A stretch of 64,000 nucleotides of DNA from Escherichia phage W70, in the sequence record OP778610; one strand, given 5' to 3'. Below are positions 932-36,539 of this stretch, one piece after another (within the stretch, counting starts at the first letter, position 1; each line of letters starts with the position of its first letter). Both the position numbers and the translations under genes were made by a program. The notes beneath the pieces were generated by a model. That model was not told where the DNA came from. It worked only from the letters and a program-made list of their open reading frames with translations, and ran no database searches.

Positions 932-2167
932 ATGATCCCTTTTCCAATTATTAATTTCGGTGGCGGTGTTCCACTACCTGTAGGCGTTACAATCAAGTAT
1001 GCAGTAAGTACCAGCACCGGAAATATTTTTATTCTGCTTACCAATGGGCATCTATATGTAACCGGATCTAATTATCTAAACGGGCTTGGTAAAACAGGGA
1101 CCACAAATAATGCAACTTCGGGATGGTCACTTACTAACACAGGTGTTGAAGAAGTTTATGAGGTAGGAACAGAAAGTACACTGTACGGCGGTGTGTGGGT
1201 TAAGAAAAATAATAACCACTATGAATATATCTCTGCCGTAGTCTTTCCCACTGTTGACACAACTCTCCAAAACAGTTGGAACGTCTTGCCTGAATCCGCA
1301 TACATCGTTGATGGTGTAAATATCTTATCTTCAGCAATACAAATAGCCAGATCATACGCGATCCAACCCGACGGCACTGTTTACAGACTGCTTCCAGAGG
1401 GGCCGCAAGTAGCTTGGCCTGAAAAAACAAAATACCTGTATTTTGCAAACTATAATGCCATTCGTGTCGAGGTGGATGGGACTTTAAAATACCGAGGCGA
1501 CAATGGTGTAGATCAAGTGGCAGGCACTTCTGCCGGAACAACATTATCAACTTGGACAACCATCGGGGATTCTTCTGTAAGGTATATTAGGGCAAAATGT
1601 GCTCGTGGTCAAGTGGCTAACACGAGTGGCGGTTCAGGTGCTCAATCTATTGTACTTGTTGTTGCACAGAGGGAAGATGGGTCATGGGATGCAGTTGGAT
1701 CGACAGCAAGAGCAGGGATAAACTCAACCAACGTCCTCGGTCCTAATTTAGCACCTATGACAAGCATACCTGCGGGGGTTGAAGTTTATGTCACTAACCA
1801 GGTCAGTTATACAAACGCAAGTGTGGGAACAAGGGGAGCATTGCAAGTGTTCATCTCCGATAGGGTTAATGGCATCTATCAATCAACGGGTGGACAAGGT
1901 GGATACACCTATTCTTTATTTAGGAATCTTTCTATAACCACTAATGCAACATCTTTCGATAATATATCTGAAGATATTATAAACGATGGTGGTATCCTTC
2001 ACATGACGGGTTCATTATCCGATACTTTCAAAGTGATTGTTAGTGGTAATGGTAATCTTTACTGGACAGGGAGAGGATATTCAGGGGCTATGTACCCTGC
2101 TGACTTTACGGCCTCTAATACGATAGCTCAGAAGTTTAACTTGGAAGGTATAGTTATTCCAGCATAA
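932..2167 (+). CDS. RCC1-like repeat protein, probable fibre or receptor-binding component
   Basis: AGGAGG RBS 6 nt upstream; repeats such as LYVTGSNYLNGLGKTG and LYWTGRGYSG. Confidence 0.55.
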   Translation: MIPFPIINFGGGVPLPVGVTIKYAVSTSTGNIFILLTNGHLYVTGSNYLNGLGKTGTTNNATSGWSLTNTGVEEVYEVGTESTLYGGVWVKKNNNHYEYISAVVFPTVDTTLQNSWNVLPESAYIVDGVNILSSAIQIARSYAIQPDGTVYRLLPEGPQVAWPEKTKYLYFANYNAIRVEVDGTLKYRGDNGVDQVAGTSAGTTLSTWTTIGDSSVRYIRAKCARGQVANTSGGSGAQSIVLVVAQREDGSWDAVGSTARAGINSTNVLGPNLAPMTSIPAGVEVYVTNQVSYTNASVGTRGALQVFISDRVNGIYQSTGGQGGYTYSLFRNLSITTNATSFDNISEDIINDGGILHMTGSLSDTFKVIVSGNGNLYWTGRGYSGAMYPADFTASNTIAQKFNLEGIVIPA

Positions 2168-31944: not shown

Positions 31945-32404
31945 TATTTATTTGGATACCGAAACGATTTTCGTTAGTGGAAAAGAAACCATTTTCCATG
32001 CGGCGAATCTCTTCTTTCATCACTTCCTGCATCGTTAATTTAAGGATTTCTTTGTTTAATTTTGGCTTAACTTCATGAAGCTTGTCAAGAAGTTTTTCCA
32101 TTTCTTCTTTTACTTTTTCTTCCTCATTTTCTATTTCTAATTGGTCCATCGCATCTTTGCAAACACAGCAATGACCTATTACTCTTAAAATGTGGTTTTG
32201 TATAGGTAATGCTTTTCTACCACAATAACCACAAAGAATAGAACCACCAGAGTTTCGGGCATCCACTGTCAATGTAGGTTTGGCCCCTTTTGCCTGAGAA
32301 TGCCAAGTCTTTTTGCCTTGGTAATCATACATAAAGAATTCATAGGATCTCTCATCAACGTGATCTTCGAGCATATGTAAAGTTCGTGTATTGAAATGTT
32401 TCAT
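31916..32404 (-). CDS. hypothetical zinc-ribbon protein
   Basis: CGYCG...HCCVC cysteine pairs. Confidence 0.5.
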   Translation of the reverse strand: MKHFNTRTLHMLEDHVDERSYEFFMYDYQGKKTWHSQAKGAKPTLTVDARNSGGSILCGYCGRKALPIQNHILRVIGHCCVCKDAMDQLEIENEEEKVKEEMEKLLDKLHEVKPKLNKEILKLTMQEVMKEEIRRMENGFFSTNENRFGIQINNGEDYVEED

Positions 32405-32526
32405 CTTTAAACCTCTCGTCGTTTGTATGAGCTAACTATACGAGAACTTGAGAGGAAGATCAATACTTGATTTGCATTTTATTTTCATTATACTGTGCAC
32501 ATCTAAAACGAGAAGGAGTGTAATAA
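32405..32526. promoter_or_regulatory. divergent promoter region
   Basis: AT-rich 120-bp gap between divergent gene arrays; TTGATT...TATACT-like elements; GGAG RBS before 32527. Confidence 0.4.
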
Positions 32527-33090
32527 ATGAGTCAAGATAAAGAGTTAGCCATTGCAATATCGACAGCAGCTTCTGCACACGTTAACCAGGTAGATAAAGG
32601 AGGGAATATCTACATCCTTCATCCTTTACAGGTGATGCAGACACTGCAACAAAAAGGAAGAGAGGATTTAATGGCAGCAGGTGTTTTGCACGACGTGATT
32701 GAAGACACTAATCTCACTATGGTAGATCTCTTTAGAATGGGTATTTCAGAAAGAACTCTGGAGATTGTCGATGCAGTAACAAAGAAACGTAAGCAATCTT
32801 CATCTGATTACCTAGAGGGGATTTTAGAGAGTGAGGGTGCTTGTCATGTTAAGCTTGCGGATCTTAAACACAACTTAGATATTCTGCGAACTTGTAGCAC
32901 CACAGAAAAAGACTTGCAACGGGTCAGGAAGTATGTAACAATGCACTTGTTGATTACGGAGATGGTTGATTGGTATGAAAGTATCGGAAGGTATCTCGAT
33001 TATTGTGATTCTTTTGCCTATTCTAGCTATCTCGACGAACGTAAAGAATTTGTTCAGAAACTTATTAAAAAATGGAAGGAGTTTAAATGA
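32527..33090 (+). CDS. small alarmone hydrolase (SpoT/Mesh1-type HD-domain (p)ppGpp hydrolase)
   Basis: IYILHPLQV and AAGVLHDVIEDT motifs; 187 aa single-domain. Confidence 0.7.
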   Translation: MSQDKELAIAISTAASAHVNQVDKGGNIYILHPLQVMQTLQQKGREDLMAAGVLHDVIEDTNLTMVDLFRMGISERTLEIVDAVTKKRKQSSSDYLEGILESEGACHVKLADLKHNLDILRTCSTTEKDLQRVRKYVTMHLLITEMVDWYESIGRYLDYCDSFAYSSYLDERKEFVQKLIKKWKEFK

Positions 33091-33620
33091 AAAAGGTATT
33101 GAGTATTGAGCCGTTCACAACAACATACTTTGACGATTTGGAACGTCATGGTGATTATGGGGTACAAGACGCTGATGGTTGGAAAGAATTCCCTGAAGAA
33201 ACAAAAGGTGACATTACAAAGCTCGGTTGTAAGATCAATGGTGAAGAACCGAAAGGTGTTTACACCATGTTTTCTTTCCTTGAAGCTATGAATCCAACAT
33301 ACAAGGGGGATAGACAATTCGGTTTTTCTTTTGCATCATTCCTTACTTGCAGTTGTGGTCACGGGGGTTGTGCAGGCTATCATGATAATGTGGTTATTCG
33401 ACGTAAAAAGAACACGGTGATGGTCGTAGGGAAAAAGGAAGATGGTTACAACGAAGGTGTTGTATTGACAGGGGAGTCTGTTGTATACTTCGATAAAGAG
33501 CAATGGGACAGCGTTCTGGACCACTACCTTAAACTCTTTAAAGAAAATCCAGATGGTGTTTTTGAAGATACAGGTTTTATGTTCACTGGTCGTTGGGGGA
33601 CTAAAAATTTTTCAAAATAA
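33087..33620 (+). CDS. hypothetical Cys-rich protein
   Basis: Start overlaps hydrolase stop; CSCGHGGCAGYHD cluster. Confidence 0.5.
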   Translation: MKKVLSIEPFTTTYFDDLERHGDYGVQDADGWKEFPEETKGDITKLGCKINGEEPKGVYTMFSFLEAMNPTYKGDRQFGFSFASFLTCSCGHGGCAGYHDNVVIRRKKNTVMVVGKKEDGYNEGVVLTGESVVYFDKEQWDSVLDHYLKLFKENPDGVFEDTGFMFTGRWGTKNFSK

Positions 33621-33690
33621 CTTAAAAACTGGTTGACTTAAGAAATAGAAAAGATATACTTATCACATCAAAAACAAGAGGAGATATAAA

Positions 33691-34920
33691 ATGCAAGCAA
33701 CTTATCAACGTATGGACCAAACCATGTTCAAAAAACGTATCAGTATCCGTGATATGGAACCACTGATCCGTCTGGGCGCTTCCATCGGTAAGACCGTGTT
33801 CTTTTTTGGTGGTGCAGGTCTTGGTAAGTCTGAAAAAGTAAAACAGATCGCGGACTCTATGTTCCCACATCGTGTAGGCAATAACCTGTGTGATGTTCGT
33901 CTGTCTGATAAAGAGCCACAAGATATTGCAGGCATTCCGATTCCGATCTCTTATCCAGATCCAAAGACTGGTGAAGAAGTTACCCGTACTGTATATGCTG
34001 TTCCAAACTTCTGGCCTACCGATCCTGATTGGGAAGGTATCGTGTTCCTGGATGAACTGCCGAACGCACCATTGGGTACTCAGCACTCTGCATATCAGGT
34101 TATTCTTGATCACGTTGCAGGTGAGCATAAGTTCCCGAAAGGTACTGTGTTTGTAGGTGCGGGTAACCGTGATACTGATGGAGCAGGGACAACATCTATG
34201 CCTGGTCCACTGGTTAACCGTATGATCATCGCCGAGGTTGATTATAATCTGGATGTGTGGATCGAAGATTATGCGATTCCGTTCCGTCTGCATCCGAACA
34301 TTATTGGTTTCTTGAAGCAGTTTCCAGAGCATTTCTATACTGGTGACGTAGAAAACCGAAGCACTCCGGTTTATTCATCTCCTCGTCAATGGAAAACAGC
34401 ATCTGACATTCTGTATAAGTACGATGCTGGCGAGATTAATGAATTTATCGCAGAGGTTGCCCTGGCAGGTACAGTTGGTGAAGGCTTGGAAGTACAGATC
34501 CTTGCTTACCATTTACGTGCTAAAGAACTTCCTCCGATTGAAGATATCTTTAGTGGTGCAGTTAAAGAACATAAACTTGATCGCAGTAAGAACGACCTTG
34601 TTTACGTACTGGCACAAACTGGTCTGCGTCGTATGGAAGATGAAGTTATGGATAACGATATGACTGATGATAAGTTCCTTGAACGTGCAGGTAACTTCCT
34701 TACGTTCATGTACAATAACTATTATGCAAACAACAAGGATACGATGATTGCTTTGATCTTGGGCGTGTTCCGTGGTCCAAACGATAAGCCATCTATCCTG
34801 ACTGTTAACCCGAAACGTCAGAAAATGATTCCGCTCATGCGTAAAAGTTGCCCGACTGTTTCTGCCGCAGTTATGGAATACATGACTCGCTATGGTCAAC
34901 TGATTAAAGAATTCGAATAA
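33691..34920 (+). CDS. MoxR-like AAA+ ATPase
   Basis: Walker A GGAGLGKS, Walker B VFLDELPNA, GAGNRDTDG. Confidence 0.65.
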   Translation: MQATYQRMDQTMFKKRISIRDMEPLIRLGASIGKTVFFFGGAGLGKSEKVKQIADSMFPHRVGNNLCDVRLSDKEPQDIAGIPIPISYPDPKTGEEVTRTVYAVPNFWPTDPDWEGIVFLDELPNAPLGTQHSAYQVILDHVAGEHKFPKGTVFVGAGNRDTDGAGTTSMPGPLVNRMIIAEVDYNLDVWIEDYAIPFRLHPNIIGFLKQFPEHFYTGDVENRSTPVYSSPRQWKTASDILYKYDAGEINEFIAEVALAGTVGEGLEVQILAYHLRAKELPPIEDIFSGAVKEHKLDRSKNDLVYVLAQTGLRRMEDEVMDNDMTDDKFLERAGNFLTFMYNNYYANNKDTMIALILGVFRGPNDKPSILTVNPKRQKMIPLMRKSCPTVSAAVMEYMTRYGQLIKEFE

Positions 34921-35000
34921 TCTCTTGACAACGAAAAACAGTTAACTTAATATAAGGGCATCTCGAAAGAGGTGTCCTTTTTTAATTTGGAGAAAATGAA

Positions 35001-36539
35001 ATGGCAAAACTTACGATTGAAGAAAGCAATATGATTGAAATGCAAGTCTCTGAAGCAGAGCGTATCATCGAGGCTGCTAGTCTACAACTGATGCGGTTTA
35101 AGCCCTTCTACGGGGTAATGCTTTCTTCTATGCCTGTTAAAAAGGCGACGGAGTGGTGTAGTACAATGGCGACTGATGGACGTAACCTGTATTACCATCC
35201 AGAGTTCGTTGCAGGTATGACAGAAGAACGTAAAAAATTGGTACTTGATCGACTTTCCAAAACTGAGAAAGATCCTAAAAAGCTGAAAGAGTCCACTGAG
35301 TTTATTAATGTCTTCTATCGTCGCAAGACTGCCCGTGAGCTTGCTCTTATTCTTGAGCACGAATGTGATCATGTGATCTCTGATCATGCCTCTCGTGGTA
35401 AAGGATTTAATCATGAACTTTACAACATTGCGGCTGACCATCGTATCAATACAACGGCTGTGCTTATTCACCAAAAAGGGGATGAGTTAGGTAAAGCATG
35501 GTTCCCTGCCGGAGAGAGAACAGTATTTGATAAGAATGCTGAGTTTGGATTTATGGCCTGGTCTTACTGTGATTTCCGATTCAAAGATATGTATACTGAG
35601 CAGATCTATGAAATCCTGAATAAAGAGCAAGATGATAAAGAAAAATCCAAAGGACAAGGTTCTGGTTCTGGAAGTGGAGAGGGTGATGGTGAAGAGGGTG
35701 ATCAAGGTCGTAAAGGTGTTGATCAGCACATGGACCAGAACGGCGATCCAGAAGATTCAGAAGGCGATAGTGTCGAAGATGCGTTAGGAATCGACCGTAA
35801 AGCGAAGCCTAAGCAAACAGCAGAGGAACGCCAGTATAACGATGGGGTTATGCGTCGAGCCATTGAGAATGCCGTACAGGCAGCAGGAAGCGGTGCGCCG
35901 GAAGATGCTCGTCGTTTTGTAGAAGCAGCAGGTAAACCAAAGATTAACTATCTTCGTTTGTTGCGTAAAACTATTGAACGTCTGTTTAAAGATGATGTAT
36001 CATATCGTCGTTTGTCACGCCGTAGTCACTCGTTAACTCGAACTCTTCGTAGTTCTGGTTACTTGTCTGGACGACAGACGATTGGTTTACCATCGAAGAA
36101 CAAACAGAAGACTATTCGTGCGGGTGTCTTCTTCGACGTATCGGGATCATTTAACGATGATCTATTGCGTCCAACAATGCGTGAGATTCGTGGATTATGT
36201 AATCTTTACGACGAATTTGAGGTCACGATGGCTTGCTGGTCAACAAAGGTTGGTAACATCGAGACGTATACGAAAAGAAACGTTGGTGAGATTGCTGACT
36301 ATAAGATCAAAACGACATTTGGTACGGATGTTTCTTGTGTGTTTGAAGCATTAGATGAAATGGAAGACCCTATGGATCAGATCATCATCTATACTGACGG
36401 TTACTTTGCTGATGTATCCCAAAAGAAAGATTGGGCCAAAAAGTATGGTAAGAATGTTCTTTGGATCATCCTGGGCCGTGGGTCTTCGTTCACCCCACCT
36501 TTCGGCAAGGCAATTGATTTTGACAAGTATCTTAAATAA
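35001..36539 (+). CDS. putative metallopeptidase-vWA domain protein
   Basis: HExxH in ILEHECDHV; acidic Gly/Ser linker; C-terminal FFDVSGSFNDD MIDAS-like motif. Confidence 0.6.
   Translation: MAKLTIEESNMIEMQVSEAERIIEAASLQLMRFKPFYGVMLSSMPVKKATEWCSTMATDGRNLYYHPEFVAGMTEERKKLVLDRLSKTEKDPKKLKESTEFINVFYRRKTARELALILEHECDHVISDHASRGKGFNHELYNIAADHRINTTAVLIHQKGDELGKAWFPAGERTVFDKNAEFGFMAWSYCDFRFKDMYTEQIYEILNKEQDDKEKSKGQGSGSGSGEGDGEEGDQGRKGVDQHMDQNGDPEDSEGDSVEDALGIDRKAKPKQTAEERQYNDGVMRRAIENAVQAAGSGAPEDARRFVEAAGKPKINYLRLLRKTIERLFKDDVSYRRLSRRSHSLTRTLRSSGYLSGRQTIGLPSKNKQKTIRAGVFFDVSGSFNDDLLRPTMREIRGLCNLYDEFEVTMACWSTKVGNIETYTKRNVGEIADYKIKTTFGTDVSCVFEALDEMEDPMDQIIIYTDGYFADVSQKKDWAKKYGKNVLWIILGRGSSFTPPFGKAIDFDKYLK

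Follow-up and report, generated by a model that had tools for sequence, protein, structure and literature searches.

The stretch of DNA analyzed here, 64,000 nucleotides of Escherichia phage W70 (sequence record OP778610; hereafter the window), carries two adjacent genes predicted to encode a MoxR-class AAA+ ATPase (open reading frame [ORF] A) and a protein that joins a zincin-type peptidase domain to a von Willebrand factor A (vWA) domain (ORF B). On balance, we think it probable that the two form a module of the phage N4 gp24/gp25 family, i.e., an ATP-driven remodeling machine or protease that serves host takeover or counter-defense and not virion construction. An initial annotation made from the sequence had proposed a MoxR-type ATPase paired with a metallopeptidase-vWA protein; both ORFs lie on the plus strand where it had placed them, and every motif that it quoted is present (GGAGLGKS, VFLDELPNA, HECDH at residues 120 to 124, DVSGS at residues 379 to 383, and an acidic Gly/Ser linker), with the motif columns invariant in the two families. 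The observation is thus confirmed and its interpretation is supported. The pair has already been described in phages, and rV5-type records carry the annotations "MoxR ATPase" and "putative metallopeptidase"; the W70 copy is an expected ortholog, not a discovery or a new system. The main features of the pair are as follows.

33691-34920, plus strand: ORF A, predicted MoxR-class AAA+ ATPase and N4 gp24 ortholog, 409 residues (ORF call, PHROG, structural model, Foldseek, and profiles)
33808-33831, plus strand: Walker A motif GGAGLGKS, ORF A residues 40 to 47 (G40, G43, G45, K46, and S47 invariant among 42 homologs)
34042-34068, plus strand: Walker B region VFLDELPNA, ORF A residues 118 to 126 (D121, E122, and A126 invariant among 42 homologs)
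35001-36539, plus strand: ORF B, predicted DUF2201-type zincin peptidase-vWA protein and N4 gp25 ortholog, 512 residues (ORF call, Pfam, PHROG, and hhalign)
35358-35387, plus strand: putative zinc site HECDHVISDH (HExxHx4H), ORF B residues 120 to 129 (family alignment)
35643-35786, plus strand: acidic, flexible linker rich in Gly, Ser, Asp, and Glu, ORF B residues 215 to 262 approximately (sequence and disorder prediction)
36096-36536, plus strand: C-terminal vWA domain with a metal ion-dependent adhesion site (MIDAS), formed by D379-x-S381-G-S383 (nucleotides 36135-36149), T442, and D466

W70 is a coliphage of the subfamily Vequintavirinae (over 4 kb, the window shares 97% identity with phage A73), and the functional evidence comes from the same subfamily. 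Vequintavirus Bas54 was mutagenized by transposon in the HIDEN-SEQ preprint (10.1101/2025.11.20.689424), where the MoxR ATPase gene bas54_0063 and bas54_0140 were named anti-defense genes needed against DS-28, a predicted two-gene system of E. coli CFE311; the phage also needed the MoxR gene to overcome the cloned DS-28 system (10.1101/2025.11.20.689424). DS-28 is described only as a small, uncharacterized, plasmid-associated family. The rV5/Bas54 pair is the sole member of the family with functional data, and the Bas54 orthologs align over their full length with the window proteins, at 36.7% (MoxR) and 37.1% (peptidase-vWA) identity. The supplementary tables of the preprint give the following figures per gene, as TA sites hit on K-12 and as log2 fold change (log2FC) between K-12 and CFE311.

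bas54_0063, MoxR ATPase: 60/64 TA sites hit, non-essential on K-12; log2FC -7.23, q = 0
bas54_0055, metallopeptidase: 81/86 TA sites hit, non-essential on K-12; log2FC -2.20, adjusted p 0.009
bas54_0140: 24/24 TA sites hit, non-essential on K-12; log2FC -5.48, q = 0
bas54_0056, Srd-like neighbor: 55/55 TA sites hit, non-essential on K-12; log2FC -0.08, not significant

According to our reading of the supplementary table, bas54_0055 would be the partner of the ATPase in the CFE311 phenotype; the authors are silent on the metallopeptidase. Because of these data, a host-directed role in counter-defense or takeover is the best supported and an essential role in virion assembly is disfavored. The initial annotation had considered the function of the pair in a lytic phage unclear, which no longer wholly holds now that the Bas54 ATPase ortholog has been reported as an anti-defense gene. 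The other gene needed against DS-28, bas54_0140 (L064 1211-1510), encodes a 99-residue protein (phrog_12072) found only in the 118 Vequintavirus records, all at at least 80% identity, which is a typical accessory anti-defense distribution, unlike that of the widely conserved MoxR/vWA pair. This difference in breadth suggests a general machine combined with lineage-specific specificity factors, and the target in W70 may therefore differ. Further sources were uninformative: the CRISPRi-ART paper does not bear on the pair, since its phage SUSP1 falls outside the rV5-like group and its tests of N4 covered rII only, and two other phage transposon sequencing preprints make no mention of the pair.

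ORF A comprises an AAA+ module (residues 20 to 250 approximately) and, C-terminal to it, a helical extension of some 150 residues, and its AlphaFold (AF2) model is confident, with a predicted local distance difference test score (pLDDT) of 89.7. In addition to the Walker motifs, N159, R160, R177, and R232 are invariant columns in the alignment of 42 ATPases, and Walker B is kept in 46/46 distinct ATPase homologs from the viral loci described below. In the model, N159 comes after the strand formed by residues 152 to 158, R177 precedes the strand formed by residues 178 to 183, and R232 opens the helix spanning residues 231 to 245. From these positions, we infer that N159 and R160 may act as sensor 1, R177 as the Arg finger, and R232 as sensor 2 in the lid. 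The model further shows helix 76-80 followed by paired strands (82-89/96-103) ahead of the Walker B strand, and short strands at about residues 142 to 148 that precede strand 152-158 (pLDDT 86 to 94 for both); as modeled, these correspond to the helix-2 insert and the pre-sensor-1 hairpin, hallmarks of the MoxR/dynein/midasin clade. A Foldseek search with the model placed NorQ and CbbQ2 structures at ranks 1 to 16 (E values of 1.7e-8 to 5e-7; TM-scores of about 0.6 to 0.66 on the target, at a sequence identity of 14 to 17%), and the list further includes the MoxR protein 2r44, dynein, and Rea1. The profile of the ATPase family, built from 42 homologs, found the midasin/Rea1 AAA ring as its top solved-structure match (4.7e-11), and ORF A falls into phrog_1297 ("ATPase"; 7.5e-101). 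No NCBIfam model matched ORF A, nor did a single-sequence search of PDB sequences return any match. Orthologs also remain below the Pfam thresholds, with N4 gp24 reaching 20.4 bits for AAA_5 (cutoff 22) and Turkey5 18.9 bits for AAA_3 (cutoff 27). Since ORF A itself has no Pfam match, the MoxR assignment rests on structure and profile evidence, and since the AAA_5 and AAA_3 models are unmatched and the family is a divergent offshoot, we use the term MoxR-class and do not name a MoxR subfamily. Judged from its sequence and its model, ORF A is a predicted divergent MoxR-class AAA+ ATPase with intact catalytic motifs, and the MoxR-type call is borne out by NorQ/CbbQ2 as best structural match and midasin as best profile match. 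An antisense ORF of 236 codons (33622-34332, minus strand) overlaps the ATPase gene; it is unsupported and most likely a non-coding shadow ORF.

ORF B is identical (100%) to W70_33 of Escherichia phage W70. Pfam recognized DUF2201_N (PF13203; 4.4e-25, 89.3 bits for a gathering cutoff of 23.2) and DUF2201 (PF09967; 1e-7, 32.6 bits for a gathering cutoff of 26.4) in the expected N-to-C order, and both domains were found in all 62 homologs retrieved. Profile searches, which the initial annotation had proposed for both proteins, thus placed the two DUF2201 domains above their gathering thresholds in ORF B, whereas AAA_5 had no match to ORF A. The PHROG assignment of ORF B is phrog_1314 (9e-106). 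In the N-terminal region, the three His residues H120, H124, and H129 never vary among 36 homologs, at least 90% of which also have E121; the complete HExxHx4H pattern occurs in 49/50 distinct partner proteins of the viral loci. The invariant H129, 5 residues past the second His of HExxH, is a candidate third zinc ligand, and the family profile gave weak matches over the HExxH region to selecase (a minigluzincin; 7e-4) and to M48 peptidases. The model of ORF B (pLDDT of 80) contains a helical N-terminal domain, a linker predicted to be disordered (pLDDT below 50 at residues 220 to 252), the sequence and length of which differ among homologs, and a C-terminal alpha/beta domain with the Rossmann-like fold of vWA proteins. 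In the latter, D379, S381, G382, S383, T442, and D466 are all invariant among 36 homologs and make up a full MIDAS, and DxSxS is present in all 50 distinct partner proteins. The Rea1 MIDAS domain and the NorD vWA domain headed the Foldseek matches, the former at the top, with a likeness to BchD as well, and these matches, along with the two DUF2201 domains, uphold the metallopeptidase-vWA call. Sequence and model together describe ORF B as a zincin-type domain connected by a disordered acidic linker to a vWA domain whose MIDAS is complete, with peptidase activity being predicted. A literature search gave no biochemical data for any DUF2201 protein.

Database labels for this family are often misleading. 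The label "HNH endonuclease" carried by phrog_1314 and many GenBank records was rejected for ORF B, as Pfam identifies DUF2201_N and vWA and no HNH domain. The same mislabel is widespread for DUF2201 peptidase-vWA proteins, including N4 gp25, CR8 gp117, those of RaK2 and PBECO4, and other RefSeq/GenBank records, and yet other records read "anti-sigma factor" or "DNA repair ATPase." One natural variant was also observed in a 277-kb IMG/VR contig of a jumbo-phage lineage (L053 11053-12393), in which the partner lacks HExxH (LGALVISTVLEH) and keeps the MIDAS as DTSGS, GGGT, and TD. Since HExxH was lost and the MIDAS kept, the vWA adaptor role may be the indispensable part of this protein.

Profile-profile alignment with hhalign linked ORF A to N4 gp24 (probability of 99.9%, E value of 2.6e-33) and ORF B to N4 gp25, a textbook DUF2201 protein (probability of 100%, E value of 8.4e-46), and by these comparisons the two are predicted orthologs of gp24 and gp25. 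In N4-like phages, gp24 and gp25 are among the 14 core genes and are middle genes with no assigned function (PMC4193335; PMC2784036). The pair of N4 (Schitoviridae) resembles that of the window in the order of the genes, ATPase and then peptidase-vWA, in the HExxHx4H and MIDAS motifs, and in its location among the middle genes, with genes for nucleotide metabolism, rII, and a helicase nearby. However, both proteins of the window exceed their N4 counterparts in length (409 versus 352 residues for the ATPase and 512 versus 380 residues for its partner). ORF B differs from gp25 by an insertion of about 35 residues upstream of HExxH, by its long linker of acidic and Gly/Ser residues, and by a basic Arg/Ser insertion that precedes the vWA domain. 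In ORF A, the helical extension at the C terminus is longer than in gp24, and AAA_5 gives no match, whereas gp24 falls just short of the threshold of this model. The same two-gene architecture, with an N-terminal metallopeptidase fused to a vWA domain, is found in group 2.2 jumbo phages (gp265c/gp264c of phAPEC6, and RaK2), where, as in the window, the two genes are direct neighbors in the same orientation, at only 24 to 28% identity to the window proteins. In rV5-like phages, by contrast with the adjacent genes of the window, the two genes lie in divergent units on opposite strands, 3.4 to 5.1 kb apart.

tblastn found relatives of ORF B in 319 phage records and of ORF A in 814, with both represented in Vequintavirinae, RaK2/121Q/GAP32-type jumbo phages, and Aeromonas phages, and ORF A additionally in N4-like phages. 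To assess co-inheritance, 52 IMG/VR viral loci were collected by ATPase similarity alone and scanned with hidden Markov models for a DUF2201-type ORF within 10 kb. Such a partner was detected in 49/52 loci, which represent 17 ATPase lineages with ATPase identities down to about 25%. As the loci were fetched independently of the partner, this co-occurrence backs a functional pairing. Two of the three loci without a partner are contig ends. The third, a 136-kb rV5-like IMG/VR contig (L015, 1-10000), is the sole informative locus without a nearby peptidase-vWA gene, 15 kb of the contig having been covered; tail-fibre-sized ORFs (596 and 1658 residues) stand where the early block of about 8 kb normally sits, and the gene may have been deleted or relocated. 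No third gene was universal beside the pair, with none present in more than 4/17 lineages. A DUF3150 protein of about 300 residues was seen beside or between the two genes in 4 divergent lineages (L050 8996-9865, L055 2828-3724, and L057 10664-11584) and may be a lineage-specific third component. A pattern-based scan for the motif-defined ATPase subfamily in cellular species genomes, which distant cellular relatives could escape, returned 4 hits in 185,579, all on contigs of metagenome-assembled genomes, and PADLOC gave no matches. The pair travels together across very distant phage groups and is old and widespread.

Cellular MoxR-vWA systems suggest how such a module could work. NorQ-NorD and CbbQ-CbbO, whose motors are the top structural matches to ORF A, with the NorD vWA domain among the top matches to ORF B, offer the template of a hexameric motor with a single vWA adaptor and a linker. 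In the cryo-electron microscopy structure of NorQD, the vWA domain extends a finger into the pore of the hexamer, and a linker of the partner is twisted by the motor (PMC13036017). These systems differ from the phage pair in that they insert metal or reactivate an enzyme and that their partners have no peptidase domain, and ORF A carries an extra helical domain of about 150 residues with no counterpart in NorQ. Midasin/Rea1 likewise combines an AAA motor, a flexible acidic linker, and a MIDAS that grips an acidic substrate residue, although this eukaryotic protein of ribosome biogenesis carries its six AAA modules on a single chain of 5,000 residues and lacks a peptidase. The MoxR-vWA ternary conflict systems of multicellular bacteria (Kaur et al. 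2020, PMC7159879) also employ such a couple, in their case as an ATP-dependent switch in conflicts between viruses and hosts. Their vWA component is sometimes fused to a peptidase, the peptidase of the window being N-terminal and phage-encoded; they are host defense systems with a third component (VMAP, iSTAND, or FtsH) and C-terminal effector domains, whereas no third gene is conserved beside the phage pair. If NorQ-NorD, CbbQ-CbbO, and Rea1 are taken as models, ORF A would form a hexameric ring on which ORF B would dock through its vWA domain, possibly with a loop inserted in the pore. The MIDAS of ORF B could then capture an acidic residue of a target protein, and ATP hydrolysis would pull or twist via the acidic linker so that the target is remodeled, presented to the zincin site, and cut. 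The module would be made early, from sigma70-type promoters, and would neutralize one or more host proteins, immune proteins included.

A more specific version of this scheme, which we put forward tentatively and consider rather less likely than its negation, is that the pair is an ancient phage-wide "unfold-and-cut" machine, in which the MIDAS grabs immune proteins or activating partners and the AAA+ ring feeds or exposes them to the zincin, while small proteins such as bas54_0140 could be target adaptors. Several observations weigh against a counter-defense role for the W70 pair. The effect of the metallopeptidase on CFE311 is about 30-fold weaker than that of MoxR, and the gene was neither singled out nor deletion-tested by the authors. 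The functional data come from Bas54, the proteins of which are only 37% identical to those of the window, and no homolog of bas54_0140 is present in the W70 window; the specificity for DS-28 may sit in bas54_0140 and hence may not apply to W70. ORF A matched zero Pfam families even at E ≤ 10, AAA_5 (PF07728) and AAA_3 (PF07726) included. For no member of the family has peptidase activity, a hexamer, a physical interaction, or a substrate been demonstrated. Finally, near-universal conservation, as in the core pair of N4-like phages, is atypical of anti-defense genes, which are usually patchy, and hints at a more general role.

This last point leads to the alternative that survives best, although we still regard it as unlikely: a general host-takeover protease directed at a housekeeping host protein or a phage regulator, with either an indirect role against DS-28 or a MoxR motor that chaperones small inhibitors like bas54_0140. 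Conservation across very distant phages would fit a general function better than an inhibitor of a single system, and the DS-28 phenotype shared by the genus-restricted bas54_0140 is compatible with a general machine plus a specific factor. The Vequintavirus peptidase-vWA gene also adjoins an Srd-like "anti-sigma factor" gene, but this neighbor was not depleted on CFE311 (log2FC of -0.08). Moreover, both genes of the pair are dispensable on K-12, so a housekeeping target would not be limiting there, and the target of such a protease is not known.

We consider it improbable that the pair acts instead as an assembly chaperone and maturation protease for tail, fibre, or head proteins of the virion. 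Such a role was suggested for the MoxR plus metallopeptidase-vWA pair described in group 2.2 jumbo phages, with the MoxR-vWA pair of Acidianus two-tailed virus as the analogous case (Iyer et al. 2021, PMC7824862), and in Turkey5 a tail tube gene is located a few kb upstream of the pair. The virion proteome of phAPEC6 does contain gp265c (6 peptides, 19% coverage), as well as thymidylate synthase (PMC7247149). We confirmed gp265c as the MoxR ortholog, but its partner gp264c is not in the virion table, and the presence there of thymidylate synthase makes a carry-over of abundant non-structural proteins likely. For Vequintavirinae, the proposal is unsupported by the Bas54 data: both orthologs tolerate saturating insertion on K-12 and are therefore dispensable for infectious virions. 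N4 gp24 and gp25 are middle genes and do not appear on the N4 virion protein list (PMC4193335). The position of the pair in the window also argues against a virion role, since it lies outside any structural module, near replication genes, and behind sigma70-like promoters. The pair heads a rightward block that follows a strand switch at about 32400-32527, and its neighbors are genes for a DNA polymerase, a primase/helicase, and a Dda-like helicase, together with many small early-type ORFs; by this arrangement, the two are predicted early/middle region genes near the replication genes.

Similarly doubtful is a role in metal-cofactor insertion or enzyme activation for a phage or host metalloenzyme, for example in nucleotide metabolism. 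Cellular relatives perform such tasks: NorQD delivers iron into NO reductase, CbbQO activates rubisco, and CobST and BchID are chelatases. Among solved structures, NorQ and CbbQ2 come nearest to ORF A, the vWA domain of ORF B resembles those of NorD and BchD, genes for dCTP deaminase or thymidylate synthase adjoin the pair in N4 and jumbo phages, and an HD-domain hydrolase gene is found beside it in 4/17 lineages. Nevertheless, retention of the HExxHx4H zincin site in all but one of 50 partners suggests proteolysis over metal delivery, no gene for a candidate client enzyme is conserved beside the pair across lineages, and the Bas54 phenotype is tied to a defense system and not to general growth.

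The regulatory sequences around the pair bear on whether its genes must be transcribed together. The following elements were identified.

33633-33660, plus strand: sigma70-like promoter TTGACT-16-TATACT, 30 bp upstream of the ATPase start codon (10/12 matches to consensus; conserved)
34925-34953, plus strand: sigma70-like promoter TTGACA-17-TAATAT in the intergenic gap (consensus match; conserved)
34954-34984, plus strand: terminator-like hairpin (11-bp stem, GAAA loop) with a T-run, immediately downstream of the -10 hexamer (folding and conservation)

The evidence for transcription is limited to these conserved individual sites, the activity of the promoters being predicted from consensus and conservation; the totals of promoter-like and terminator-like sites in the region show no excess over shuffled controls. 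The inner promoter, located in the 80 bp that separate the two ORFs, is shared without change by A73, LTH01, UPEC06, and A5-4. In the Certrevirus CR8, TTGACT-16-TATAAT is found by eye at the same place ahead of the ATPase gene and TTGACA-16-TAGAAT at the place of the inner promoter, and the hairpin (folding energy of -19.4 kcal/mol, z = -2.97, in W70) has a stem preserved by compensatory changes (GGGGTCATCT-TTCG-AGATGGCCCC followed by TTTTT); both promoters and the hairpin are thus retained despite the diverged surrounding sequence. A start about 7 nucleotides past the inner -10 hexamer would fall in the 5′ arm of the hairpin, so that inner transcripts would escape termination while upstream ones could stop. 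The intergenic region also hosts insertions: in A5-4 (L007 2497-2991) and A7_1, an HNH homing endonuclease gene sits exactly between the pair with the flanking genes intact, in A5-4 downstream of the conserved promoter/hairpin element, and a locus with a 537-bp gap between the two genes (L010) was grouped with these cases.

Given that each gene has its own conserved promoter, that a hairpin lies between the genes, and that rV5-like phages carry them on opposite strands, the two do not constitute one obligate transcription unit, and their linkage would be evolutionary and functional, not operonic. Of the pairing claimed by the initial annotation, the association of the genes stands and an obligate common transcript does not; it had held that separate transcription together with functional independence would speak against its proposal, and the former is possible by sequence. 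Full independence of two coincidental neighbors is scarcely credible, for while a promoter-like site for each gene with a conserved hairpin between, the homing endonuclease gene tolerated in A5-4, the strand arrangement of rV5-like phages, and the missing partner in L015 would all suit it, co-occurrence in 49/52 loci and 17 lineages, the known work of MoxR-class ATPases with vWA partners (PMC13036017, PMC7159879), and the depletion of both Bas54 genes on the same host strain, CFE311, speak to the contrary.

Other genes of the window deserve mention. The first gene of the rightward block (32527-33090, plus strand) encodes a 187-residue HD_4 protein (a RelA/SpoT-type HD hydrolase; phrog_990, "metal-dependent phosphohydrolase"), which could be a small alarmone hydrolase. 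Its label in UPEC06, "GTP pyrophosphokinase," was rejected, as the protein has HD_4 only and no synthetase domain. HD_4 homologs adjoin the MoxR/vWA pair in 4/17 lineages, including gp111 of CR8. Directly upstream of the ATPase gene (33087-33620, plus strand), a 177-residue phrog_8242 protein with no Pfam domain contains a Cys/His-rich stretch (CSCGHGGCAGYH) and is kept in A73, UPEC06, and CR8. Elsewhere in the window (53542-57040, minus strand, and 932-2167, plus strand), three paralogous ORFs of about 380 to 414 residues, arranged in tandem, have matches among the PHROGs for "regulator of chromosome condensation" (RCC1-like beta-propeller), and the N terminus of a fourth ORF is related to theirs; this set is probably a diversified fibre or receptor-binding set. 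On a broader scale, an order running from the ATPase to rIIA, rIIB, and a DNA helicase is common to N4 (gp24, gp33, gp34, and gp37; L062) and rV5-like phages (bas50_0064, 0067, 0068, and 0069; L004/L065), which suggests a shared early/middle block of ancient origin. The W70 window showed no ORFs of the size of rIIA or rIIB.

The pair is among the few gene couples common to N4-like podophages, rV5-like myophages, and 350-kb jumbo phages. Its structural class, co-inheritance, and early/middle placement, taken with the transposon data, turn a vague "chaperone-like module" into a testable idea. If the "unfold-and-cut" proposal is true, it would represent the first AAA+-driven proteolytic counter-defense system in phages, and a function would be gained for two long "unknown" core genes of N4-like, rV5-like, and several jumbo-phage groups. 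For phage therapy, the pair may influence host range on clinical strains.

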